A stretch of 36,010 nucleotides of DNA from the UHGV virus genome UHGV-0022223, one strand, 5' to 3'. How positions within the stretch are numbered: the stretch's first letter is position 1; the number at the start of each line of letters is the position of its first letter. Made by a program: the position numbers and the translations under genes. Under the pieces are notes generated by a model that made no database searches, was not told the origin of the DNA, and was given only the letters and a program-made list of their open reading frames with translations. Below, piece by piece: positions 4,198 through 26,059 of the stretch. The stretch is from a virus.

Positions 4198-5502
4198 TTA
4201 TTGACGATTAAAGTAGTTAGAGTTTAGCTCTTTAGGGAAGTAGTGTTTACGATTTACCCAAACAAATCCATCAACTTTTGATATCACAGCGACATCAACA
4301 GGCCCACCGACAGTTTCATAATCATGTGATACTTTTCTTTTGAATGCAGTGATGTTCACTAATGATTCGGCCATATACGCAAGATCTGCCTTCCCAAGTG
4401 ATTGCAACATCGATATCATTTTATTTGTATGGTTATTAACAATATAGCTTTCAAGTTTAGTATCGTGATCTTGTAAAAGTACGTTTTTGAGTTCCTCAAT
4501 TTCACTGGAGAAGTGATTGGCTAGTACTCCATTGTTCATTGCAGGGAAAATATTGCTAGAAACATAATGATTAAGCCGATCAAAAACTTCCTCTGTAAGA
4601 GTTCTGTTAAAATTAATGATGTTAGGGTTGCACCCATCAATGAAAGTTACTACTTCATCTTCTTGAGCAAATGGTATAACAAACCCCATATTGGTTACCT
4701 CATTATGGGATTTCTCATCAATATTATGGATCATCAATTTGTTTTTAAAAATGCCGTAGATATGAAGAGTGCAAATGGAAGGGTAATATTCTTCCTCTCC
4801 ATAACCTGTTATAACAATCCCTGAATATGTACGACTAGCATGGACTTTGAAAATTAAACAAGTGGAATATAATATGACTTTTTCCATAAGCTCTTGCTGT
4901 ATATTTTCACAGTTATCAAGAACAATAATTGATGAAATGTATGGCGATATTAAATCTTGTATATATGCTAAAGCATCATTAAACTCTTCTGTATCAAACC
5001 CTTCGAAAAAGAGATTATTCCTTAAGATTCCTATCTCTAAATCAAAGGCTTGCTTAACTATGTTTTGAAAAATAACATTGTCGAGTTCAACGGCGGGGTT
5101 CATTGTTAAATAGTTTACTACATTATTATCATTAATGTATCTCATCAAACCTTTGAGGTTATCAACAACAAGGTTTATAACGCAAGCCTCTCTCATTTCA
5201 TTTGTTATAAGGTCTGAGTTACCATTGATGAATTTTACAAAGTCATTAACATATTCTTTAATGGTAGGGAAACTAGTTTTCCCCAATTGTTTTCTATAGG
5301 ATTTAATTATAAGTTCCCACGGTGCGCCACCCAGTGTCGCATTATTATAAATCATGATCCCCACGGGATGGTGTTTAGATAGTTCGAATAGTTTTTCCGC
5401 ACTATTATTTATTTTTACTAATCTATTATGCTCTGTGGTGACTGCAGAGTCAGCAGCAAGGGCGATTCCAGTATTATTTATTACAACAATCTCAGCTGTC
5501 AT
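4198..5502 (-). CDS. 434-aa protein with proteasome-beta/HslV-like Ntn-hydrolase sequence blocks and a large internal insertion; AT-rich moron
   Basis: Long ORF in strongly AT-rich DNA. Starts MTAEIVVINNTGIALAADSAVT...KLF (Thr after Met, Asp about 16 residues later, Lys before LF), has a TGYGEEE block, and ends GGPVDVAVISKVDGFV, which closely resembles the proteasome beta C-terminal strand recalled from memory. Confidence 0.8.
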   Translation of the reverse strand: MTAEIVVINNTGIALAADSAVTTEHNRLVKINNSAEKLFELSKHHPVGIMIYNNATLGGAPWELIIKSYRKQLGKTSFPTIKEYVNDFVKFINGNSDLITNEMREACVINLVVDNLKGLMRYINDNNVVNYLTMNPAVELDNVIFQNIVKQAFDLEIGILRNNLFFEGFDTEEFNDALAYIQDLISPYISSIIVLDNCENIQQELMEKVILYSTCLIFKVHASRTYSGIVITGYGEEEYYPSICTLHIYGIFKNKLMIHNIDEKSHNEVTNMGFVIPFAQEDEVVTFIDGCNPNIINFNRTLTEEVFDRLNHYVSSNIFPAMNNGVLANHFSSEIEELKNVLLQDHDTKLESYIVNNHTNKMISMLQSLGKADLAYMAESLVNITAFKRKVSHDYETVGGPVDVAVISKVDGFVWVNRKHYFPKELNSNYFNRQ

Positions 5503-5641: not shown

Positions 5642-6028
5642 TCAGTCCCCCTGCGAGCGAATCCGCCCCTTCATGTACTTCTCATACAGCTCATCCAGTT
5701 CCTTAAGACGTATCGAAAAGATGCGGAGCATGTTCTGTTGCTCTTCTTCTGGCAGCTGGCGGTAGAGCTCAAGCAGGCGCTGTTCGTCCGGCTTAAGTCC
5801 GTCCTTCTCGCCGACATCCTCACCGAGTAACCAAGGCACAGACACGCCAGCTGCGTCAGCGACAGCGAGAGCTGATTTCTTGCTGATCACGCCTTTTTTA
5901 AACCAGCCGTTCACAGACTGCGGGGTTACCCCAGCAACCCTGGCCATATCGGATTTGGTCATACCGCGCCCGTTCAGCTCTGAAAGGCGTTCGACAAGTA
6001 TCGGATTAAGTACGGTTTTCTCTTTCAT
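5642..6028 (-). CDS. Prophage repressor, HTH XRE family, DicA/RacR-like (no S24 peptidase domain)
   Basis: 128 aa; N-terminal HTH (MTKSDMARVAGVTPQSVNGWF) and a C-terminal LLELYRQLPEEEQ segment resembling DicA from memory; divergent from a Cro-like gene with operators between them. Confidence 0.75.
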   Translation of the reverse strand: MKEKTVLNPILVERLSELNGRGMTKSDMARVAGVTPQSVNGWFKKGVISKKSALAVADAAGVSVPWLLGEDVGEKDGLKPDEQRLLELYRQLPEEEQQNMLRIFSIRLKELDELYEKYMKGRIRSQGD

Positions 6029-6132
6029 GGTTAGAAGAATAAGCCTTTTGCTTAAATTTGAAAATTCGCCTCAGGCTTGACAATAAATTAAGTCTCAGGC
6101 TTAATTTGATTGTATTCAAATCGGAGACAACG
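6029..6132. promoter_or_regulatory. OR-like region: divergent PR/PRM-type promoters with three operator sites
   Basis: Operator-like sites at 6040-6055 (TAAGCCTTTTGCTTAA), 6068-6080 (GCCTCAGGCTTGA) and 6088-6104 (TTAAGTCTCAGGCTTAA); TTGACA at 6077-6082 gives a rightward promoter. Confidence 0.6.
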
Positions 6133-6351
6133 ATGAACGGGTTAACGAAAGCCATTAAGTCCGCTGGCACTGCAACAAATCTCGCAACCATGCTGGGCAT
6201 CAAGCCGATGTCGGTCAGCCGCTGGAAAAACCGGTACCAGGGCGTGGTGCCTGCTGATCGGGTCCTTCAAATCTACGCGGCTACCGGCGTAACTCCACAC
6301 GAGCTGCGCCCTGATCTCTATCCAAACCCAAGTGACGGTTTACCAAAGTAA
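6133..6351 (+). CDS. Cro-like / YdaS-family HTH regulator
   Basis: Internal ATG of track ORF 6058..6351 with RBS GGAGA; 73 aa with HTH (TATNLATMLGIKPMSVSRW); divergent from the repressor. Confidence 0.7.
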   Translation: MNGLTKAIKSAGTATNLATMLGIKPMSVSRWKNRYQGVVPADRVLQIYAATGVTPHELRPDLYPNPSDGLPK

Positions 6352-6362
6352 GGAATGTAACT

Positions 6363-6902
6363 ATGCAATCACTTACGTATCAACAGAGTAACGGGTTCAT
6401 TTCAGCAGCGCTGATAAATCGCGCTCAACCAAAACCGGGCGTCAGTTGTGGTGCCCTCCGTGATGCTGTTCGCGCCTGGTCAGCAGTAGCCGGGCAGGAC
6501 GTTGTAACGGCCCTGATCGTTGAAGAGTGGCACCGGATAGGTGGCGAAGGTATCGACTTTCCGGCAGATCACAGCCGTGCCCGGCAGAAGCTGTTCCGCT
6601 TCTTGGATAACCATTTCAACAGCGAACGGTACCGCGAGAACGTCCGCCAGCTGACGCCGGCAATCCTCGCTGTCCTGCCGATTGAATACCGCAATCGTCT
6701 GCTACCAGAAGACAACGTAATGGCTCGTCTGGCAAGGCTGGAGAAGGAAACCAGCGAAGCGAAGATTGCTGTCGCAATGGATGCGCCACGTCATCAGAAG
6801 CTGAAAGAGTTGAGCGAGGGGATCGTGGAGATGTATCGCGTTGACCCTGGGTTAACCGGTCCGTTGATGGAAATGGTGCAGATTATGCTGGGGGCTATAT
6901 GA
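6363..6902 (+). CDS. YdaT-like / CII-position regulator (hypothetical)
   Basis: 179-aa ORF with RBS AAGGAA directly after the cro-like gene; position matches Rac ydaT. Confidence 0.5.
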   Translation: MQSLTYQQSNGFISAALINRAQPKPGVSCGALRDAVRAWSAVAGQDVVTALIVEEWHRIGGEGIDFPADHSRARQKLFRFLDNHFNSERYRENVRQLTPAILAVLPIEYRNRLLPEDNVMARLARLEKETSEAKIAVAMDAPRHQKLKELSEGIVEMYRVDPGLTGPLMEMVQIMLGAI

Positions 6903-6986
6903 CCGGTTCAAAAATGGCGAAAGCCGCGGTGCTCGAACACCAACGGCTTTCAGGTGCAAAAACAGTGCGTAATTGCGGAGAACAGT

Positions 6987-7895
6987 ATGTCAAACACCGC
7001 TGAAATAATCAATTTCCCAAATAAAACCGAACAACCGGGAGGTCGTATGGCCGACCTGTCGAACGGGTATACCAAGGTCGCTAACGAGATCCAACAGCTT
7101 AAGCCTCGCCTGAGACTGTCAGGCCGGGAATGGCAATGTTTTGAGGCGGTGATCTGGCTTACCTACGGCTGGAACAAGAAACAGGACCGCGTGACAAATA
7201 CGGTTATTGCCGAGCTTACGGGCCTGAGCGATACGCATGTATCGGACGCGCTTAAGTCTCTCGCAGAACGCAAAATCATCTTTTCACAGAAGCAGGGCAT
7301 GATGAAAATCGTCGGTGTAAACACTGACCTTTCAGCATGGATTTTAGACAAACCGGAAACGGGAAGAAAATTCCCGAAAACAGGAAAATCCTTCCCGAAA
7401 TCAGGAATAACCTTCCCGAAAACGGTAGACACCCAATACAAGAACAAGAACAGTATTAAAAGATCTTCGTCCGAGAATTCTGACGAATCCTCTGACGCAC
7501 GTCTGAAGAAATTTTTATCAACTCATCCTGAAGCTGCGGTCTACACACCATCCGGTGCGAAGTGGGGCTCTGCTGAAGACCTCGAGACAGCTAAGTGGAT
7601 TTCCTCCAGGGTGAAGCTGATTAACCCAACCTGCAAAGCCCCGGACATGACCTCCTGGTCTAACACTGTTCGCCTGATGCGCCAGATAGACGACCGGTCG
7701 CACCAGGACATCTGCGCGCTGTATGACTGGGCTAGCAAACACCACTTCTGGCAGACCAACATCCTGAGTCCCGAAAGCCTGCGTAAGCAGTGGGACAAGC
7801 TGACAATGCAGCGTAACGCCGGAGGTGAGCAGCGCGCTGTCAAGCCAGATCTGGACTTCAACAACACTGACTGGGCCTATGGGGTGATCCGATGA
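6987..7895 (+). CDS. O: Replication initiator, lambda O-like
   Basis: Start at internal ATG (MSNTAEIINFP...) with RBS GGAGAA; N-terminus and RMADLSNGY resemble lambda O from memory; iterons inside the gene; stop overlaps the P start. Confidence 0.75.
   Translation: MSNTAEIINFPNKTEQPGGRMADLSNGYTKVANEIQQLKPRLRLSGREWQCFEAVIWLTYGWNKKQDRVTNTVIAELTGLSDTHVSDALKSLAERKIIFSQKQGMMKIVGVNTDLSAWILDKPETGRKFPKTGKSFPKSGITFPKTVDTQYKNKNSIKRSSSENSDESSDARLKKFLSTHPEAAVYTPSGAKWGSAEDLETAKWISSRVKLINPTCKAPDMTSWSNTVRLMRQIDDRSHQDICALYDWASKHHFWQTNILSPESLRKQWDKLTMQRNAGGEQRAVKPDLDFNNTDWAYGVIR
7353..7432 (+). repeat. Origin iterons inside the O gene (about four direct repeats) followed by an AT-rich stretch
   Basis: CCGGAAACGGGAAGAA, TTCCCGAAAACAGGAAAA, TTCCCGAAATCAGGAATA, TTCCCGAAAACGGTAGAC; each encodes part of the FPKTGK-like peptide repeat. 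Confidence 0.7.
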
Positions 7896-8581
7896 AATCT
7901 CTTGCAGAGCAGATGCGTAACCACGACCGCGAGCAGATGAGCCGCATGGCCCATAACCTGCCAGAGCAGTACCAGGAGTGCGCGCCGGTCGAGCAGGTGG
8001 CGCAGGTATTCAACAAGCTGTTCAACGAGCTGCGCGCCGCGTTCCCGGCCAGCATGGCGAACTTCCGCACCCAGGAAGACCTGAACGAATTCCGCCGTCA
8101 GTGGCTGCTGGCGTTTCAGGAGAACGGGATCCACACCATGGCTCAGGTCGATGCCGGCATGCGCATTGCCCGCCGCCAGGAGCGCCCATTCCTGCCGTCG
8201 CCGGGCCAGTTCGTCGCCTGGTGCAAGCAGAGCGGCGGCGCGCTGGGCGTCAACGTTGACCAGGTGATCGCCGAATACTGGGACTGGCGTAACCGCTCGT
8301 TCGAATTCATCTCCAGCGAGCAATTTCCATGGTCGCAGCCGGTCATGTACCACATTTGCGTAGAATTGCGCCACCGCAGCACCGAGCGCCAGTTAACGCA
8401 TGGTGAACTGGCACGCGAGGCAGGCGATCTGCTGGACATGTGGGAAAGGCGCGTCACCGAGGGTAAGCCAGTGCCGCCGGTACGCCGGGCTATTGCCGCA
8501 CCAGCTGCCGAGCAAGGGCCGACGCCGATCCAGCTGCTGCTGGCCAAGTACAACCGCAACAAGTCGAACGGGATGGTGTGA
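7892..8581 (+). CDS. P: Replication protein P-like helicase loader
   Basis: 229 aa with long matches to lambda P recalled from memory (DREQM, MPEQY, FPAS, RQW, ENGI, RPFLPSPGQFVAWC); ATGA overlap with O. Confidence 0.85.
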   Translation: MKSLAEQMRNHDREQMSRMAHNLPEQYQECAPVEQVAQVFNKLFNELRAAFPASMANFRTQEDLNEFRRQWLLAFQENGIHTMAQVDAGMRIARRQERPFLPSPGQFVAWCKQSGGALGVNVDQVIAEYWDWRNRSFEFISSEQFPWSQPVMYHICVELRHRSTERQLTHGELAREAGDLLDMWERRVTEGKPVPPVRRAIAAPAAEQGPTPIQLLLAKYNRNKSNGMV

Positions 8582-15752: not shown

Positions 15753-16382
15753 ATGGAAACCATCATGGCATCGAAAAAGCTAACGGCGGAACAGCAGCGC
15801 CTTTTCGATGTGCTGACTCCGCTCCAGAAAAGATTCAGCTTAGCCATTATCAAGGGCAAGAATCAGACCGAGGCTTACCGCAAAGCAGGAGGGAAAGCGA
15901 AAGGGGACAACCTCCGCAAAGCTGCGCACGTAATTGCGACAAATTGCGACGTTCAGGCGTTCATTAAGTCTGTTCAAGGTGAAATCATCGACGAGGCCAT
16001 TATGACCCGCGAAGAAGCTCTTAAGCGTTTGTCTAAAATGGGCCGTGCTTCTATCGCCGATATCGCCGAGTTTAGTAACAGCATCGTGGGGGAGGATGAA
16101 GAAGGAAATCCTGTCTATCAAGCCGTCTGGAGCTTCAAGGATTCTTCCCTTCAGGACCCTGACGCGATGAGCGCAGTATCAGAGCTGATCTCAGGGAAAG
16201 ATGGTATCAAACTGAAGATGCACGACCCGAAGGCAGCAATAAAGCAGTTGGCTGAGTTGCAGGGGTGGGAAGCACCTAAGAAAACCGAACTGACTGGTGC
16301 GGAGGGCGGCCCGATCAAGACCGAGACGACCAACCTCACCGCAGATCAGGCCGCAGAGATTTACCGCAAGATGATGGGGTGA
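15753..16382 (+). CDS. Terminase small subunit (putative)
   Basis: 209 aa with N-terminal HTH-like region; directly precedes and overlaps the large terminase. Confidence 0.55.
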
Positions 16383-18007
16383 TCATGCCTCTCCCGTTTG
16401 AATTCGATTTCAGAAACCCTGATTACCAGATGGTTTTTGAATGGCGGATGGAGCGCTTACAGCGCATTCGCCAGAACCCTGAAATGCTGCCAGCGCTAAA
16501 GCAGTTTTATCGCACCAACCCGGCACAGTTCATCATCGACTGGGGTATGACTACTGACCCGCGTAACATCGATTATGGCCTGCCGGTCACCATCCCTTTT
16601 CTGCTGTTCCCGAAACAGGAAGAGTGGATTCACTGGATCATGGAGCGGCGCGAACGACTGGAGAACGGCATCACCGAAAAGAGCCGCGAAATGGGGCTCA
16701 GTTGGACCGCGATCGGGCTGGCCTGCTCGCTTTGTCTCTTCAACAAAGAAATGGTTATCGGTTTCGGCTCCCGTAAAGAGGAATACGTCGACAGCACCGG
16801 TGACCCGAAGGCGCTGTTCTGGAAGGCGCGAAAGTTCGTGGAAACACTGCCCATCGAGTTTCGTGGTTCGTGGGACGAGAAGAAGCATGCGCCGTATATG
16901 CGCGTTGAGTTTCCAGATACTGGCGCGGTTATCAAAGGCGAGGCTGGCGACAATATCGGACGTGGTGACCGTACCACGCTCTACCTGGTGGATGAAGCTG
17001 CATTCCTCCAGCGTCCTCTGTTGATTGATGCGGCGCTGTCGCAAACCACCCGTTGCCGTATTGACCTGAGCTCGGTTAATGGCATGGCGAACCCGTTCGC
17101 GCAGAAGCGCCACGGCGGAAAAATACCAGTATTCACGTTCCACTGGCGAGATGACCCGCGCAAGGATGAAGAGTGGTATCGCAGGGAGTGCGAGAAAATC
17201 GACAATCCGGTGGTGGTGGCGCAGGAACTTGACCTGAACTACAGCGCATCAGCGGAAGGCGTCCTGATCCCGTCCGACTGGGTACAGGCTGCCGTCGACG
17301 CGCATATCAAACTTGGTATTCAGCCAACGGGCAAGCGACTGGGCGCGATGGACGTCGCCGACGAAGGCCGGGACAAAAATGCCTTTTCGACCCGTCACGG
17401 CTTCCTTCTGGAGAACGTGCGTGAATGGTCCGGCGTTGGCAGCGACATTTACCAGTCTGTTGAGAAGGTCTTCGGCTTTTGCGAACAGGACAACCTCGAA
17501 GAGTTTCGCTTCGACGAGGACGGTCTGGGTGCTGGCGTTCGCGGCGATGCGCGCGCCATCAACGAACTGCGTAACGCTGCGCGACGACCGTCAATACTCG
17601 CCACACCGTTTCGTGGTAGCGGCGCGGTATTTGATCCGGACGATGAAGCGGTGCGCGGGGACAACGGACAGGCCGCACGCCTGAACAAGGACTTCTTCGC
17701 CAACGCCAAGGCCCAAAGCTGGTGGTGGCTACGCAAGCTTTTCCAGAACACCTATCGCGCCGTGGTTGAGGGCATGGCCTACAACCCGGACGAAATCATC
17801 TCAATCAGCAGCGCCATGGCGAGCAAAGACAAACTCATCATTGAGCTGTCGCAGCCGACCTACTCCATTAATGGCGTGGGGAAAATCGTTGTTGATAAAC
17901 AGCCTGATGGCACCAAGTCGCCGAACCTCGCCGACTCGGTGATGATCAGCTACGCGCCAATGAATTCAGCCCTGAACATCTGGGAGCTGCTAGGGAGACA
18001 GGCCTGA
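16379..18007 (+). CDS. Terminase large subunit
   Basis: 542 aa; deviant Walker A-like KSREMGLS and Walker [10 protein letters not shown]; ATGA overlap with the preceding gene. Confidence 0.8.
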
Positions 18008-19476
18008 TGGCACGAAACAAGCAATCCTCTCAGCGAACGGCACAGGCCACCGCTGACGGCTACGAGAACTTCGTCGCCCGCGTTGGGATGCAGACGCCTA
18101 ACCAGCATTCAGCATCGACCTACCGGGCGAACTTCACCAGCCGCAACCGCATGCTGGTGGAATGGTCATATCGCGGTTCGTGGGTTATCGGTGAAGCGGT
18201 CGACGCTATCCCGGACGATATGACCAGAAAGGGCATTCGCATCACTTCGGAGATTGACGCCAAAGACCGTGGCACCCTCGAAGCGCAACTGGATGAGTTG
18301 CAGATCTGGGATGCGCTGAACGACGTGCTGAAATGGTCGCGCCTCTACGGCGGCGCGGTCGGCTTCATCATGATCGAGGGGCAAGCACCAATGACCCCGC
18401 TGCGACTCGAAACCATTGGCGAGGGCAAGTTTAAGGGCATTCTCCCGCTCGACCGCTGGATGATTAACCCGGTGCTGACACGCCGCATTAAAGAGATGGG
18501 GCCGGACCTCGGCAAGCCTGAGTTTTACGACGTGGTGACCACCGCAACGGGCATTCCGGCCTGGCGCATCCATCACAGCCGCCTGATCCGCTTTGATGGC
18601 GTCACGCTGCCATTCCAGCAGAAGATGACCGAAAACGAATGGGGAATGTCGGTTGTAGAGCGTATCTGGGATCGGCTTACTGCGTTCGATAGCGCTACTG
18701 TCGGCGCGGCGCAGCTGGTCTATAAAGCGCATCTGCGTACCTATAGCGTGGAGAAGTTGCGCGAGCTTATCGCGCTTGGAGGCCCGGCGTTCGAAGCGTT
18801 GCTGAAGAACATCGACCTGATCCGCCAGTTCCAGAGCAATGAAGGTATGACGCTCATGGACTCGCGGGATAAGTTCGAAACCCACCAGTACAGCTTTAGT
18901 GGTCTGGATGACATTCTTTCGCAGTTTGCTGAGCAGATCAGCGGTGCCGTTGGTATCCCGCTGGTACGCCTGTTCGGTCAATCCCCGAAAGGCTTCTCTA
19001 CTGGTGATGCGGACCTCGCCAACTATTACGACCGGGTGAGCTCATTGCAGGAGCGCCGCTTACGGCTGCCGATGCGCCGGATACTGGACATTATGCACCG
19101 CTCGGAACTCGGAAAGCCGCTGCCGGACGATTTCACGTTTGAGTTTAACCCGCTATGGCAAATGTCAGACGTTGACCGATCAACGGTGGCCGTAAACACC
19201 ACCAACGCGATCAGTACCGCGCTGGGCGACGGATTGATGACGCGTAAGGCGGCGATGACCGACCTGCGCGAAAACTCTGACGTCACCGGCATCGGGGCAT
19301 CCATTACCGACGAGGATATCGAGAATGCCGAAGACGAAGCGCCGCCAGGCATCGGCGAACTTGGCGACAAACCGCCAGAGTCGCCAGGCGGAGATCCGAT
19401 ATCGAACGAGCCTACGGCAGATAGCGCGGGCGGTCGGGGATATCGTAAATGGTCGCTACGATGGTTCAAACGATAG
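18007..19476 (+). CDS. Portal protein
   Basis: 489 aa directly after the large terminase, with an acidic low-complexity C-terminal tail. Confidence 0.7.
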   Translation: MARNKQSSQRTAQATADGYENFVARVGMQTPNQHSASTYRANFTSRNRMLVEWSYRGSWVIGEAVDAIPDDMTRKGIRITSEIDAKDRGTLEAQLDELQIWDALNDVLKWSRLYGGAVGFIMIEGQAPMTPLRLETIGEGKFKGILPLDRWMINPVLTRRIKEMGPDLGKPEFYDVVTTATGIPAWRIHHSRLIRFDGVTLPFQQKMTENEWGMSVVERIWDRLTAFDSATVGAAQLVYKAHLRTYSVEKLRELIALGGPAFEALLKNIDLIRQFQSNEGMTLMDSRDKFETHQYSFSGLDDILSQFAEQISGAVGIPLVRLFGQSPKGFSTGDADLANYYDRVSSLQERRLRLPMRRILDIMHRSELGKPLPDDFTFEFNPLWQMSDVDRSTVAVNTTNAISTALGDGLMTRKAAMTDLRENSDVTGIGASITDEDIENAEDEAPPGIGELGDKPPESPGGDPISNEPTADSAGGRGYRKWSLRWFKR

Positions 19477-20098
19477 TGTCACCGAAATAATGGATGCGCT
19501 GGAGCGCTACAGCGAAATCATCACCCCCTGGGCGACGAAGGTTGCTGAGAACTTTACCGCCGACATTGCACGCCAGAATGAAAAGCAGTGGCGTCAGCAC
19601 AGCCGGAACATCAGCGCAGAGCTGCGCAACATGGTCGACCGCGCCCCGGTAGGCCAGGTGATGAAATCCATCGTCGCCGAGCAAATTAAGTACATCAAAT
19701 CGCTGCCTCTTGAGGCCGCCGATCGGGTGTATGACATTCAGAACAAAGCCATCGAGGCCGTTGTGACTGGTGGCCGCGCTGAGCCATTCGCGAAAGAGAT
19801 AGCTGCGTCCGGTGACGTGTCACGCTCACGAGCGAACCTTATCGCCCGTACCGAGCTTGGACGCGCAACCGGCGCGCTGGATCAGGCGCGTGCGCTGTCA
19901 ATCGGCTCGAATGGTTATATCTGGCGTACAGCCGAAGATGGCGACGTCCGGCACTCTCATCGTGAGATGGAGGGCAAGTTTGTCGAATGGGGCCGACCCC
20001 CTACGCTTGACGGCATGACCGGTCATGCTGGCGAGCTCCCGAACTGTCGCTGTTACAAAGAGATCGTCTTCCCCAACCCTCATTCTTATCTCGCCTGA
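19325..20098 (+). CDS. Head morphogenesis protein, Mu F / SPP1 gp7 family
   Basis: ATG with RBS GAGGA overlaps the portal 3' end by about 150 nt; protein family assigned from memory; true start could be the internal ATG near 19490. Confidence 0.65.
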   Translation: MPKTKRRQASANLATNRQSRQAEIRYRTSLRQIARAVGDIVNGRYDGSNDSVTEIMDALERYSEIITPWATKVAENFTADIARQNEKQWRQHSRNISAELRNMVDRAPVGQVMKSIVAEQIKYIKSLPLEAADRVYDIQNKAIEAVVTGGRAEPFAKEIAASGDVSRSRANLIARTELGRATGALDQARALSIGSNGYIWRTAEDGDVRHSHREMEGKFVEWGRPPTLDGMTGHAGELPNCRCYKEIVFPNPHSYLA

Positions 20099-20112
20099 AT
20101 CGCAGGTAAACC

Positions 20113-21333
20113 ATGAAATATTTTTTCAATACCCGGCTGGGGGAAACCCGCTATCAGCTGGCTGACGGCTCTCTGTTGTGCAAAGACGTGCCGATAGGAC
20201 GAACAGGTAAGCAGCTCTATGGTGCTGATGACCTGCCAAAACTGAAACCCGATAAGTTTGGTGAAATAGTCGTCACGCGTTCTCCTGAGCAGGTATTCCA
20301 TCCCGCCACGCTTGCCTCATTCGAAGGGATGAGCATCACGGTGTTGCATCCCGAGGATGAAAACGGGGATGTGCGGCTGGTGAATCCAGAGAACTGGAAA
20401 GAGCTCGCGGTCGGGCATCTTCAGAATGTCCGGCGCGGGGCGGGTGTGCAGTCTGATTTGATGCTGGCTGACCTTATCGTCAAAGACGAAAACGCCATTC
20501 AGCTGATCGAAGATGGCCTGCGCGAAGTGTCGTGTGGCTATGACGCGGAATATAAACAGGCTGAGCCGGGTAAGGCTCAGCAGGTCGATATTACCGGAAA
20601 CCATGTGGCTCTTGTCCCTAAAGGCAGAGCCGGAAATCGTTGTGCAATTGGAGACAGAGACACAATGGCAAATCAAAAGAAAAGCTGGTGGACCCGCATG
20701 CGCACGGCCATCAAAACGGGTGACGCTGACACCATGAACGAACTGGTGGAGTCGGCTCCCGCATCGGTTACAGGAGATGAGGGGGATTTGCCGCAGGGCG
20801 TTAATCTCAACATCAACCTGTCCCCGCAGCAACCACTACCGGACAAAGCACCAGAGATGGGTGGAGGTCCAACCGGCGACAGTGATGATGACCTCAAAAC
20901 ATTACTCAAAGCCCTGCTGGCTAAGCTGGAAGGAAATGCGACGGGCGATAACGACAATAAGCCTGACGATAATCCGACCGGTGACGGCGAGGACGATGAA
21001 GAGGAAACCACGATTACTGGTGACTCAGCCTGGCGTGCCGAGGTTATCGTTCCGGGTATCGATCTGAGCCGTAAGGTGAAACCGACCGCGTTCAAACGTG
21101 ATGTGCTGTCCGCCGCTGACAAAACACTGGTTCGCCAGGTTGTCGGTGATGCGGATATACGCAAATTGCCCAAGCAATCGGTCGATATGGCGTTTAACGC
21201 CGTGTCTGAGATTGCCAAAGGGCGAAACACCCGCAGCACCACGGGCGATGCACAACGTCCAAATATGGGCATGACCAGCATCGCTTCCCTGAACAAACAA
21301 AACGCCGACTTCTGGTCTAACCGCAAAGGATAA
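20113..21333 (+). CDS. Putative head scaffold / maturation protein
   Basis: 406 aa with an acidic low-complexity central region (DSDDD, GDGEDDEEE); sits between the F-like and capsid genes. Confidence 0.5.
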   Translation: MKYFFNTRLGETRYQLADGSLLCKDVPIGRTGKQLYGADDLPKLKPDKFGEIVVTRSPEQVFHPATLASFEGMSITVLHPEDENGDVRLVNPENWKELAVGHLQNVRRGAGVQSDLMLADLIVKDENAIQLIEDGLREVSCGYDAEYKQAEPGKAQQVDITGNHVALVPKGRAGNRCAIGDRDTMANQKKSWWTRMRTAIKTGDADTMNELVESAPASVTGDEGDLPQGVNLNINLSPQQPLPDKAPEMGGGPTGDSDDDLKTLLKALLAKLEGNATGDNDNKPDDNPTGDGEDDEEETTITGDSAWRAEVIVPGIDLSRKVKPTAFKRDVLSAADKTLVRQVVGDADIRKLPKQSVDMAFNAVSEIAKGRNTRSTTGDAQRPNMGMTSIASLNKQNADFWSNRKG

Positions 21334-21337
21334 TCCA

Positions 21338-21841
21338 ATGACTGCATATCTGTACCGGATGCCTGTTGGCATTGCCGGGGCTATCTCTCGCCCGCAGGAC
21401 TTAACCGTCGAACCGGTGATCCTTAAATCCGCTAACGCCTTCGCTGCCTATGGTCTGGCTGGCAAATATGACGCTGACGGCTTTTTCGTGCCGCTGGCGG
21501 ACGGTGACACCGCCGACAAGGTGAAGGGGATCTACGTTCGTCCGTATCCGACCACATCGCAGCCAGACATGGTTCGCCAGGTGGGGACGGATAAGAACTT
21601 CCCGGGTGACGCCATGAAGCGTGGCTACATGACCGTTAGTCTCGGTTCTGATTTTGATGCCAGCACCATCAAAAAAGGCGACCCGGTATACGTTGTCGTC
21701 TCCACTGATGAATCCATCAAAGTGCCGCTGGGCGGTTTCATGTCCACGTCCGTCAGTGGCAAAAACGTGGCGCTGACCAACGCCGAATTCACAGGGGCCG
21801 GTGACGCTAACGGCAATGCAGAAATTTCCTGGAAGATTTAA
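21338..21841 (+). CDS. Head structural / decoration-like protein
   Basis: 167-aa ORF immediately upstream of the major capsid gene. Confidence 0.45.
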   Translation: MTAYLYRMPVGIAGAISRPQDLTVEPVILKSANAFAAYGLAGKYDADGFFVPLADGDTADKVKGIYVRPYPTTSQPDMVRQVGTDKNFPGDAMKRGYMTVSLGSDFDASTIKKGDPVYVVVSTDESIKVPLGGFMSTSVSGKNVALTNAEFTGAGDANGNAEISWKI

Positions 21842-21852
21842 GGAACAGACGA

Positions 21853-22794
21853 ATGATTACTTTTGATCAGGCAACCGTTGACAGCTCTGGTGCCTTTCTC
21901 ATCGGAGAGCTGGAGCGACTCGACCAGACTCTGAACCTGCCACTGGTGGGGTACACATGGACCCGCGATATTCAGTTGCGTGAAGATGTCTCTATCGCAG
22001 ATGACATTTCCAGCTGGACGAATACCAGCTTCGCCGCTGCGGGTACTGGTGCAAATCCGAATGGCAAAAACTGGGTAGGCAAAGACTCAACCGCTATTGC
22101 TGGCGTAAACGTGGATATCGGCAAATCCGGTAACCCGCTGAATCTCTGGGGCATGGAACTGGGCTGGACCGTTGTAGAGCTGGCAGCAGCTCAGCAGGTA
22201 GGTCGCCCGATTGACACCCAGAAGTACGACGGGATGCAGCTCAAATGGCAGATGGACAACGACGAGCAGGTGTATGTTGGCGATTCCGCATTAAACCTGA
22301 AAGGCCTTGTTACCCTGAACGGTGTTCCTGTCAACAACGCTGCCAAAACGTGGGCAACCTCAACACCGGACGAAATCCGCGCAAGCATTAACCAGGTGCT
22401 GTCTGATGCGTGGGCCGCTTCCGGTTACTCTGTGGTTCCGCGTGATTTGCTGATCCCGCCAGAGCAGTTTGCTCTGTTGTCCAGCATCATCGTTTCATCT
22501 GCGGGTAACCAGTCCCTGTTGACGTACCTTCAGACCAACACCATCAGCTATCACCAGAACGGTGTTCCGCTGAATATCCGCGCGGTTAAATGGCTGAAAG
22601 GCCGTGGTGTGGGGAATAAGGATCGCATGGTTGCGTACACCAACGATAAAAAATACGTCCGCTATCCGCTGGTGCCGTTGCAGAGCGTTCCTATCCAGTA
22701 TCGCGGTCTGTATCAGATTGCGACCTACTACGGCAAGCTGGGTGCGGTTGAGCCAGTGTACAAAGAAACCATTTCGTACGTTGATGGCATTTAA
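21853..22794 (+). CDS. Major capsid protein
   Basis: 313-aa ORF with strong RBS (AAGGAACAGACGAATG), in the expected position and size range. Confidence 0.65.
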   Translation: MITFDQATVDSSGAFLIGELERLDQTLNLPLVGYTWTRDIQLREDVSIADDISSWTNTSFAAAGTGANPNGKNWVGKDSTAIAGVNVDIGKSGNPLNLWGMELGWTVVELAAAQQVGRPIDTQKYDGMQLKWQMDNDEQVYVGDSALNLKGLVTLNGVPVNNAAKTWATSTPDEIRASINQVLSDAWAASGYSVVPRDLLIPPEQFALLSSIIVSSAGNQSLLTYLQTNTISYHQNGVPLNIRAVKWLKGRGVGNKDRMVAYTNDKKYVRYPLVPLQSVPIQYRGLYQIATYYGKLGAVEPVYKETISYVDGI

Positions 22795-22835
22795 CAGCCA
22801 CATGGCCCCCTGGCGGGGCCATTAAGGATGACCAG

Positions 22836-23057
22836 ATGGCAAAAAATAATGCAGTAATACACGTATATACCCCGTTTGTGCTCACGCTTCCCGACGGTTC
22901 GCGGCGCGAGTTTGTTAAAGGCCGTCATGCAGTGGAGGAAGACGTTGCCACGCACTGGTTCACTCGTGCGCACGCGGAAGTATCCGTTGGCAAAGCCACA
23001 GACGCGCGTAACGAGGTAAAAAATGCCAAAGAATCAAAGTCTGCCAGCGGTAAGTGA
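22836..23057 (+). CDS. Small head-associated protein
   Basis: 73-aa ORF after the capsid gene. Confidence 0.4.
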
Positions 23058-23430
23058 TTTTCGCCGCGACTTCCCGCAGTTTGCTGACCCTGCCAAATAT
23101 CCCGAAGCGCAAATCCAGTTTCGTCTGAATCTGGCCGATGAACTGCTGAGCGAAAACGTCACCGGCAAAGATTTGTTTCCGTACTTTGCCGGGTTGTTCG
23201 TGGCTCACTACATGACGCTATGGGCGGCAGATAGTCGGGCAATGCTGGTTGGCGGCCCGGGCGGTTCAACCAATGGTGTTCAATCCTCCAAGTCTGTTGA
23301 CAAGGTAAGCGTCAGCTATGACACCAGCGCGACGCTAAACCCTGACGCAGGCTTCTGGAATAACACCCGATATGGCGCTGAATTTTATCAGCTGATCACG
23401 ATGTTCGGTGCGGGCGGTCGCCAGCTATGA
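23023..23430 (+). CDS. Head-tail connector-like protein
   Basis: 135-aa ORF in the head-tail joining block; overlaps its neighbours. Confidence 0.45.
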
Positions 23431-23981
23431 GCTTCAAAAGCGGTGTAACAACGAGGGTGGATAACGCTCAGGCCATTCTGGATGCGCTCAAATCCATCAG
23501 TAAAAAAGAAGTGCTGGTGGGTATCCCGGAAGCAGACAGCGAGCGGGATGATGTTCCGTTTGGTAATGCCGGGATCGGTTACGTCAACGAATACGGCTCA
23601 CCAGCGCAAAACATACCCCCACGCCCGCACCTGATCCCCGGCGTTAAATCCGTAGAGGAACAGACGGTGCCGCAACTCAAAGCAGCGGCGCAGGCTGCGC
23701 TTGATGGAAATGCGGCGGGTGCGGAAAGAGCCCTCAACCAGGCTGGCACGCTGGCCGCTAATGGTGTCAGGCGGTACATGACCATTACCGGCTTTACGCC
23801 GCTTGCTGACAGCACCGTTGAAGCCCGCGCGCGTCGAGGGCGTAAAGGGGCGAAAGCGGAGCTTGCCCGACGCGCTGCTGGCGAGTCCCCCGGAACCGAT
23901 CTGGTGAAACCGCTAATCGACACCGGGCAATATCGCAGAGCCATTACCCATGTTGTGAGGGATAAAGATGCCTACTCTTGA
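23427..23981 (+). CDS. Head-tail adaptor / tail completion protein
   Basis: 184-aa ORF, translationally coupled to its neighbours. Confidence 0.45.
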
Positions 23982-24357
23982 TGTAACAGACGTGCTTTTT
24001 GACCCCGATTTTTGCGACTTCAACCTGTGGGTAACGCGTCGCGCGCAAACGGTGGACGAGGACGGGATCGGCAGCGACAGCGAAGTTAAAACGCAGTTTT
24101 CCGGGGTTGTTACCGTTGACCGCTCTCTGGAAAACCGCCGCATGCAGGCCGGGCAGGTTATCAGCGGCGCGATTCTTATCGTGACAACTGAGCGGCTGAC
24201 ACAGGGGCAGGCTGGCCGTGATGCCGATATCGTGACGTATCAGAACCGTGATTATCGTGTGACGTTCGTCGACCCGTATACCGCTTACGGTGCTGGCTTC
24301 GTCCAGGCGCATTGCGAACTGTTGCCGTTTGATGGGGGAACTCCCATTGAGCAATAA
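23968..24357 (+). CDS. Neck / tail terminator-like protein
   Basis: 129-aa ORF overlapping the previous gene. Confidence 0.45.
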   Translation: MPTLDVTDVLFDPDFCDFNLWVTRRAQTVDEDGIGSDSEVKTQFSGVVTVDRSLENRRMQAGQVISGAILIVTTERLTQGQAGRDADIVTYQNRDYRVTFVDPYTAYGAGFVQAHCELLPFDGGTPIEQ

Positions 24358-24895
24358 CACCAGCACAGAGCGCGGCTGGCTGGCACCCACCAGCGGCGAT
24401 CCGGCTTATGACGAAGCGCTCGACAGGCTGCTAAGCCAGTGGATGCGCAATGTTTCCGGCTTGCCGTCTGGAATGGTTCGTCCGCGCTGGCAGAAAAATC
24501 AGCCGCCACTGCCACCCGTTGAAACGAACTGGTGCGCGTTTGGCGTTACCGGGTTGCTCATTGATAACAACCCTGCATTCACCGGGCAGACTGAAGAGGG
24601 CGCTCAGCTCTGGAGGCATGAAACGTTCGAGTGCATGGCGTCGTTCTATGGTCCGGCTGGTATGTCTTATGCGTCCCGTTTTCGCGATGGTATATCTGTC
24701 CCGCAAAACAATGCTGAGCTGAACGCGCTCGGTTTATCCCTTGGCGACTATACCGCTCTGACCCCTTTCCCCGAACTTATCAACCAGCAATGGGTTCGCC
24801 GTTACGACATGACGGTGCGACTGCGCCGGAAGGTTGTCCGCGAGTATGGCATCAAATCGCTGGCGGAAGTGCCAGTCACCTTTTTTGGAGAATAA
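24332..24895 (+). CDS. Tail-associated protein (start uncertain)
   Basis: Track ORF 24290..24895; first plausible ATG at 24332, still overlapping the upstream gene. Confidence 0.45.
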   Translation: MGELPLSNNTSTERGWLAPTSGDPAYDEALDRLLSQWMRNVSGLPSGMVRPRWQKNQPPLPPVETNWCAFGVTGLLIDNNPAFTGQTEEGAQLWRHETFECMASFYGPAGMSYASRFRDGISVPQNNAELNALGLSLGDYTALTPFPELINQQWVRRYDMTVRLRRKVVREYGIKSLAEVPVTFFGE

Positions 24896-24898
24896 ACT

Positions 24899-26059
24899 AT
24901 GACGCAGGGCTTACCTGTATCCAACGTTGTAAACGTTGATGTGATCATCTCGCCGAAAGCGGCTACTGGTCGTAACTTCGGCGCGCTGCTGATCCTTGGT
25001 TCTTCCACTGTCATTCCGGTGCAGGAGCGCGTTCGCCTTTATGCGTCCGTTGAGGGCATTGGCGAGGACTTCGGAGTCGACAGCCCGGAATATGAAGCGG
25101 CGCAGGTTTTCTTCAGCCAGTCGCCGAAGCCGACGCAGGTTTATGTTGGCCGCTGGGCGAAGACGCTGACCTCTTCCGAAGGTGGAAGCGTGGAAACCAT
25201 TGTGCAAGCTGTTAATGCCTGCCTGCAATATACCAACTGGTATGGGCTGGTTGTCGCTGATGATGTTGCTGATGGCGGTGATGTGCTTGATGCTGACGAC
25301 GTGATTGAGGTTGCTAAACTCATCGAAGCGTCCAGTCTGAGCCGCATTTTCGGGGTAACATCTGCCGACGCCGAGATTATCAGCACGACTTCGACGACCG
25401 ATGTTGCGTCGAAATTAAAGGCTGGCAAGTATTCCCGTACCTTTATTCAATATTCCACCAGCAGCCCTTATGCGGCGGTTTCAGCTTTCGGTCGCGCGTT
25501 TACTGTCAATTTCAACGGCAGCAATACTACCATTACCCTGAAATTCAAACAGGAACCGAGCGTAACCTACGAAACACTGACGGTAGGCCAGGCTGCGGCT
25601 GTGGATGCGAAGAATGCGAACGTGTTCGTGTACTACGCCAACGACACGGCGATCCTGCAACAGGGCGTCATGGCGAACGGTGACTTCTTCGACGAGCGCC
25701 ACGGGCTCGACTGGTTGCAGAACTACGTTCAGACCAACCTCTATAACCTGCTTTACACCAGCACCACCAAAATTCCGCAGACTGATGCCGGTGTTACCCG
25801 TCTGCTTTCCAACGTTGAACAGTCCATGGATCAGTCCGTCACGAACGGTCTGATAGCTGCTGGCGTGTGGAATGGTGGCCCTATCGGACAGCTGAATTCC
25901 GGCGATACGCTGACCAAAGGCTATTACGTGTATGCGCAACCGCTGTCCGAACAGGCGCAGGCCGACCGCGAAGGGCGCAAAGCACCGTTAATCCAGGTGG
26001 CCTGTAAGCTGGCTGGCGCAGTTCATTATGCCGATGTGCAGATCAACGTGGTTCGCTAA
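24899..26059 (+). CDS. Tail sheath protein
   Basis: 386 aa immediately upstream of the tube, chaperone and tape-measure genes, as in contractile tails. Confidence 0.65.

Follow-up and report, generated by a model that had tools for sequence, protein, structure and literature searches.

Gene content and genome context

The window, i.e., the whole 36,010-nucleotide stretch of viral DNA analyzed here (UHGV-0022223), carries two adjacent and intact replication genes (Table 1). The upstream one corresponds to gene 15 of phi80 and to lambda O, and displays a GGAG motif 8–11 nt upstream of its ATG; a program-made ORF list places the start mechanically at GTG 6954, which yields a 313-aa version. The predicted initiator matched Pfam Phage_rep_O (PF04492; E 6e-25, aa 31–129 of the 313-aa version), TIGR01610 phage_O_Nterm (E 2e-40, aa 22–118), and PHROG 277, "replication initiation O-like" (E 4e-122). 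At the DNA level the gene shared 99.6% identity with gene 15 of phi80 and 99.7% with mEp237 O, and the protein was 39% identical to lambda O over its full length. A PDB sequence search with the initiator returned only a marginal match, to the helix-turn-helix of a metal-dependent regulator (E 0.009). The next ORF matched PF06992 Phage_lambda_P (E 2e-49) and PHROG 109, "P-like helicase loader," and its product was 47% identical to lambda P. A preliminary description of this DNA had named the upstream ORF an O gene, an assignment borne out by the two initiator domain matches and by the lambda-P-family ORF that follows.

The best complete-genome matches covered 88% of the first 25 kb of the window at 96.6% identity. 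Early genes resembled those of mEp237 and HK225, and the late (head) genes at 16300–25000 were closest to Citrobacter phage Omnitron (95%) and Salmonella phage SEN34 (86%), and not to phi80; the replication module is thus combined with a different morphogenesis module. Judged from these matches, the window is an E. coli-type lambdoid prophage with a mosaic genome.

The immunity region also departs from phi80: the window encodes a 128-aa helix-turn-helix repressor, a YdaS/P22-Cro-like protein in the place of cro, and a YdaT-family protein of 179 aa, classified in PHROGs as "CII-like transcriptional activator," whereas phi80 carries cI/30/cII. A 434-aa ORF, a candidate moron or exclusion gene, sits in a low-GC island (31–36% vs 52%) flanked by the recombination genes and the repressor, in the slot held by rex in lambda and 40A in phi80. 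It matched PHROG 5990, a function-unassigned family, over its full length (E 4e-178); searches against Pfam, NCBIfam, PADLOC, and PDB returned no match for this ORF.

A candidate antisense RNA of the oop/M3 kind lies between the cII-like and initiator genes. A minus-strand TTGACA (6993–6988) overlaps the initiator ATG, and a strong hairpin GAAAGCCG...CGGCUUUC followed by UUUUU (−23 kcal/mol, z −3.3) would end it near 6912. Its position is that of the phi80 M3 RNA and lambda oop; it is not homologous in sequence to M3 and matched no Rfam family.

Table 1 Features of the replication region and neighboring loci, with the counterparts of the iterons in the phi80 genome
Feature	Position in window	Strand	Sequence or description	phi80 gp15 site (JX871397, locus L001)
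Initiator gene (phi80 gene 15 / lambda O analog)	6987–7895	+	302 aa from ATG 6987	
Helicase-loader gene (phi80 gene 14 / lambda P analog)	7892–8581	+	start overlaps initiator stop	
Repeat unit 1	7350–7370		AAACCGGAAACGGGAAGAAAA	
Repeat unit 2	7371–7391		TTCCCGAAAACAGGAAAATCC	
Repeat unit 3	7392–7412		TTCCCGAAATCAGGAATAACC	
Repeat unit 4	7413–7433		TTCCCGAAAACGGTAGACACC	
Iteron 1	7351–7365		AACCGGAAACGGGAA; right arm CGGGAA perfect, left arm degenerate	site 1, 2874–2888
Iteron 2	7371–7386		TTCCCGAAAACAGGAA; A at 7382, phi80 counterpart a perfect palindrome (TTCCCGAAAACGGGAA)	site 2, 2894–2909
Iteron 3	7392–7407		TTCCCGAAATCAGGAA; AAAT center variant	site 3, 2915–2930
Iteron 4	7413–7427		TTCCCGAAAACGGTA; left arm perfect, right arm degenerate	site 4, 2936–2950
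A-rich low-stability spacer (presumed DNA-unwinding element)	7428–7465			
Right-hand block	7466–7496		imperfect palindrome TTCGTCCGA/TCTGACGAA with GAATTC center; palindrome itself 7466–7487	
Immunity region (not phi80-like)	6058–6902 / 5642–6028	+ / −	repressor, cro-like and cII-like genes	
434-aa ORF	4198–5502	−	candidate moron or exclusion gene	
Candidate oop/M3-like antisense RNA	about 6912–6993	−		

A four-unit repeat array inside the initiator gene

Read directly from the sequence, 7350–7433 consists of four head-to-tail 21-bp units, each composed of a site with the consensus TTCCCGAAAACGGGAA and a 5-bp spacer. Tandem Repeats Finder reported part of this array (7353–7423) with a period of 21, 3.4 copies, 80% matches, and a score of 86, and a separate repeat search recovered three copies at spacings of 21 and 21, along with inverted repeats between adjacent units. 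The 16-bp core TTCCCGAAAACRGGAA, with ≤3 mismatches allowed, occurred six times in the 36-kb window, three of these matches adjoining in the array; shuffled sequences yielded a mean of 0.63 matches, and none of 100 shuffles attained six. Similarly, the 10-bp core CCGRAAHCRG was found four times in the array at exact 21-bp spacing, compared to a mean of 1.02 per whole 36 kb in shuffles. These shuffle tests rule out a chance origin of the array.

The overall pattern is one of four 16-bp sites with the consensus TTCCCG-AAAA-CGGGAA, placed exactly 21 bp apart, in which the two inner and two outer units differ in quality. Dyad symmetry between the arms TTCCCG and CrGGAA reached 5/6 in units 2 and 3, and each outer unit retains a single good arm (right only in unit 1, left only in unit 4). 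The origin-type repeats proposed in the preliminary description are thus real. The sequence said to be common to the units, TTCCCGAAA(A/T)C, holds for three of them and fails in unit 1, where the left arm is degenerate, and the internal dyad symmetry ascribed to the repeats applies to units 2 and 3, the outer units having one good arm each.

The array is in frame with the O-like ORF and encodes KPETGRK/FPKTGKS/FPKSGIT/FPKTVDT (codons 122–149 of the 302-aa protein); the FPKTGK-type peptide repeats noted earlier are indeed specified by the last three units. The array starts four codons after the N-terminal DNA-binding domain model stops (aa 118), a linker position between the domains that lambda shares, and homology between the C-terminal region and other O proteins starts at about aa 147–181.

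Immediately to the right, 7428–7462 has a GC content of 34%, compared to 52% over the entire window; its top strand holds 19 A and 4 T, and the AT skew reaches 0.6. The least stable 36-mer of the whole O–P gene pair (7433–7468) abuts the array, and only 1.4% of the 36-mers in the window are less stable. The AT-rich stretch noted after the repeats is therefore present, yet the 7428–7465 segment is only moderately AT-rich. It is followed by a block that the initial span of 7353–7460 left out: the palindrome, formed by an inverted repeat (7466–7474 / 7479–7487) complementary at 8/9 positions, and a conserved stretch reaching about 7496, so that the origin region was drawn about 35 bp too short at this end. 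The 31 nt of the right-hand block match several lambda-like phages exactly.

Near-identity with the phi80 origin

The phi80 genome record JX871397 annotates four "protein_bind gp15" features inside gene 15, and these match the four units of the window one for one (Table 1; offset of +4477 fixed by alignment, the sites being known here from the GenBank annotation). The phi80 module (GenBank X13065, JX871397/NC_021190), which is the same in mEp237 and HK225, shares 76 of 77 iteron-array bases with the window; the AT-rich and right-hand blocks are identical, and the gene position, reading frame, and downstream gene 14 all agree. Based on these four near-identical sites and flanks, with a single mismatch across 7320–7540, and on a gene 99.6% identical, the locus belongs with phi80-type origins. 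By this sequence comparison, the feature is the already known phi80-family replication origin, located inside the phage's own initiator gene. The identity with gene 15 and the four annotated gp15 sites also lend support to the earlier reading of a lambda-type origin within O.

Across 7320–7540, the window differed from phi80 and mEp237 at one base only, an A in place of G at 7382. This change affects position 12 of iteron 2 and is synonymous (ACG>ACA). It converts TTCCCGAAAACGGGAA into TTCCCGAAAACAGGAA and weakens the one perfectly palindromic site of the array, and the resulting arm, CAGGAA, is the natural arm of iteron 3, wild-type in phi80. None of 85 relatives carried the exact 7382-A array, which was also missing from IMG/VR and from the GTDB species representatives; among complete E. 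coli genomes, the best matches listed were all one mismatch away from the window array. Of 5426 complete E. coli genomes, 126 had the canonical phi80 array, and phi80dlacZ laboratory strains (DH5alpha- and DH10B-type included) accounted for many of these; the array was also detected in one genome among GTDB representatives, Enterobacter vonholyi.

Variation among relatives

A scan of IMG/VR for the N-terminal domain retained 80 loci of 399 relatives, and these loci, combined with GenBank phages and the window, provided 86 arrays, 26 of which were distinct. Four units were present in 84 of the 86. One array had five (L051, an in-frame gain in which unit 3 is duplicated), and one had two (L063, in which a 42-bp in-frame deletion left the two half-degenerate outer units).

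We evaluated per-column variation over the 24 distinct arrays of four units. Measured as minor-allele load per column, it was 0.46 in the right arm and 0.75 in the left arm, compared to 2.69 in the 4-bp center and 3.45 in the 5-bp spacer, so that variability in the inverted arms was about one-fifth of that in the spacers. Unit position 15, the fourfold-degenerate third base of the Gly codon GGA, was invariant, and the third base of the Pro codon CCG (unit position 6) was G in 44 of 48 units. Unit 4 was nearly invariant, with 19 of 21 columns constant in this set.

Third-codon positions told a similar story at larger scale. In the comparison with Hafnia phage Meifeng, third-codon divergence was 45% in the N-terminal domain vs 6/43 in the origin (Fisher p = 3e-4), and a similar depletion in the origin was observed for four other relatives. 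In the A-rich spacer, five of nine relatives showed no third-codon difference at 11 positions, and the remaining four, all of the PHB10 clade, showed 1–2. For this PHB10-type clade, there was no overall third-position depletion across the whole iteron zone (Fisher p = 0.4–0.8), because changes are concentrated in the spacers, and the constraint becomes visible only when arms and spacers are considered separately. In the same clade, the peptide FPKTGKS has become FPKSGKV with the arms kept. Taken together, these patterns point to the DNA, and not the peptide, as the target of selection.

Comparison with lambda and other origin types

In lambda, the origin occupies the middle of O and combines four 18-bp iterons with an adjoining AT-rich sequence of 38 bp (PMC3349717). 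O binds to the iterons; unwinding requires the AT-rich tract, and O-some formation does not (PMC7466680). According to work cited in PMC7466680, the two iterons nearest the AT-rich region suffice in vitro. Lambda also provides genetic information on the peptide encoded by the origin: O alleles ti12 (a point mutation in iteron 4) and r95 and r96 (small in-frame AT-rich deletions) complement O amber mutants, whereas ori:98, from which iteron 4 is removed, does not (PMC6022878). Since r95 and r96 complement and ori:98 fails, lambda demonstrates only that the peptide encoded by the AT-rich tract is dispensable, and not that all origin-encoded peptide is.

The comparison with lambda-type origins, suggested earlier as a check, gave a clear correspondence: iterons 1–4 of lambda (39034–39118), the AT-rich tract, and the GAATTC palindrome aligned unit for unit with the window, at 57% identity for the iterons, 55% for the AT-rich segment, and 88% (29/33) for the right-hand block. 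The AAAT center of the third unit is common to both, which suggests that the arrays are homologous as wholes. Like the window, the lambda ori (ITN1–4 and the 38-bp AT-rich tract, 39034–39160 in O) has four dyad sites with an AAAAC center in the O linker, followed by an A-rich strand-asymmetric spacer and a GAATTC-centered palindrome, with O and P homologs flanking or following the origin. The two differ in site sequence (TTCCCGAAAACGGGAA in the window vs TCCCTCAAAACGAGGGA in lambda), site length (16 vs 18 bp), and spacing (21, 21, and 21 bp vs 20, 24, and 23 bp), and the window further differs in its degenerate outer half-sites and less extreme AT-rich tract. Initiator–origin specificity is not expected to cross between the lambda and phi80 types; Furth and Yates reportedly found in 1978, with lambda–phi80 hybrids, that it does not.

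More generally, the locus displays the features of a lambdoid origin: it sits within the initiator gene, where it separates the coding regions of the N-terminal DNA-binding and the C-terminal P-binding domains, with about four dyad-symmetric direct repeats roughly two helical turns apart, an AT-rich strand-asymmetric segment directly to their right, and a right-hand palindrome conserved among lambdoid phages; the initiator, a Phage_rep_O family member, precedes a P-type helicase loader, and the iteron type co-varies with the initiator N-terminal domain. Shiga-toxin phages 933W and P27 are of this same lambdoid type with a variable iteron number (PMC7466680), and differ from the window in having six lambda-type iterons vs four phi80-type sites.

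Iteron plasmids (F, P1, pSC101, R6K) also combine direct repeats for their own initiator with an adjacent AT-rich unwinding element (see also PMC5043065). Plasmid iterons are generally not dyad-symmetric, are located outside of the rep gene, and act along with DnaA boxes. In contrast, the sites in the window are dyad-symmetric and lie inside the gene, and the helicase loader is phage-encoded. No DnaA box (TTWTNCACA) was found in the whole 36-kb window, which places the origin outside the DnaA-box type, and the locus did not qualify as a Rep/DnaA-dependent iteron-plasmid origin. An Rfam scan of the whole window returned no family at gathering score.

Natural exchange of initiator domains

Several phages share only one half of the initiator gene with the window. 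PHB10 and Meifeng have the same N-terminal domain and iterons as the window and a different C-terminal half, with similarity ending at 7490 and 7496, respectively. Conversely, similarity to Klebsiella phages starts at 7435 and includes the C-terminal half only. For instance, from KNKN-IKRSSSENS on, O of Klebsiella phage ST16-OXA48phi5.2 shares 79% identity with the window protein, and this phage and its relatives (Mulock, Kp4856-1, and others) carry an AT-rich and palindrome block nearly identical to that of the window, whereas the N-terminal domain of the ST16-OXA48phi5.2 protein is unrelated. Where the window has its phi80-type units, ST16-OXA48phi5.2 (L087, 1061–1185) has about seven CCGCACATGAAG-type 12-bp repeats, which are putative iterons and lie immediately upstream of the shared AT-rich and palindrome block. 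The repeat type hence goes with the N-terminal domain in these recombinants, as expected for recognition sites.

As read from these alignments, the conserved block 7435–7496 is the exchange junction between N-terminal modules, which travel with the iterons, and C-terminal modules, which travel with P. At the matching place, the lambda record annotates two misc_recomb features without labels (39157/8 and 39165/6).

Alternative explanations

Given this evidence, the array is almost certainly the vegetative (theta-mode) origin of a phi80-type replication module in a mosaic lambdoid E. coli prophage or phage. Other readings were weighed against this one. That the repeats might be maintained at the protein level alone, through a heptad-like linker repeat, FPK(T/S)G, with no cis-acting DNA role, is suggested by units that are exactly in frame and encode a recognizable peptide repeat, and by unit gains and losses that always come in multiples of 21 bp. 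Yet the fourfold-degenerate sites of the arms are nearly invariant while amino-acid changes gather in the spacers, third-position divergence is lower in the origin than in the folded N-terminal domain, and the repeat type switches with the N-terminal domain and not with the rest of the linker. In addition, dyad symmetry is meaningless at the peptide level, and in lambda the small AT-rich in-frame deletions leave O able to complement, unlike the removal of iteron 4 (PMC6022878). We consider protein-level selection alone highly improbable, and conclude that a tolerant inter-domain linker accommodates in-frame binding sites, with the FPKTGK-type peptide repeats as a by-product. Still less probable, to the point of being negligible, is that the dyad and A-tract units serve as intrinsic terminators of leftward (antisense) transcription. 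A consensus scan did flag two minus-strand sites with hairpins and T-rich tails (7407–7392 and 7386–7371), but the stems are only 6 bp long with three G–C pairs, such sites number four in the region vs 3.8 expected from shuffles, and no minus-strand promoter-like site was found downstream of the units within the gene. A palindrome with an A-rich center and spacer takes on this appearance automatically, and iterons as minus-strand terminators were thus rejected, the count not being above shuffles and the resemblance being a by-product of dyad symmetry.

A separate question is whether the origin is functional in this particular genome. It could be a dead origin in a decaying prophage, inactivated by the 7382 G-to-A change or by other lesions, a scenario to which the rarity of the change lends some weight: the 7382-A array occurs in none of the 85 relatives, IMG/VR, or GTDB representatives, and the E. 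coli matches listed are one mismatch off. Against it, both the initiator gene and the loader gene remain intact and share 99.6% identity with their counterparts in a viable phage, the base change is synonymous and reproduces an arm that iteron 3 naturally carries, only the two AT-rich-proximal iterons are needed by lambda in vitro (as cited in PMC7466680), and the window holds a complete early and late gene set. Inactivation is thus very improbable. A slightly less improbable, albeit still quite unlikely, proposal is one of finer adjustment: the A at 7382 removes the only perfect palindrome, so initiator occupancy or filling order might be retuned, and, on a wider scale, differences in unit number (2, 4, or 5 among relatives) and the strict 21-bp phasing might give phi80-type phages an evolvable means of setting origin strength. 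Separately, the FPKxG heptads encoded by the origin might have a role in the protein.

Proposed mechanism and significance

By extension from lambda and phi80, we infer that the initiator binds this array and that the phi80-type origin fires in the following manner. Initiator dimers would use the N-terminal winged-helix-type domain to contact each of the dyad-symmetric sites. With 21 bp corresponding to about two helical turns, in-phase A-tracts would place the sites on one face of the helix and favor DNA wrapping into an "O-some," and this wrapping would destabilize the adjacent A-rich segment on supercoiled DNA, leading to melting. The C-terminal domain would then recruit the P-like protein bound to host DnaB, and host chaperones would free DnaB, allowing bidirectional replication.

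Overall, the array would mark the expected start of theta replication for this prophage, and its value lies mainly in correct annotation. The association of phi80-type replication with non-phi80 immunity and late genes represents textbook lambdoid mosaicism. Within the initiator gene, N-terminal modules with their iterons meet C-terminal modules with P in the conserved block just right of the AT-rich segment. Beyond this genome, the comparative data illustrate how the arms of binding sites may remain fixed at synonymous sites while the peptide they encode drifts.
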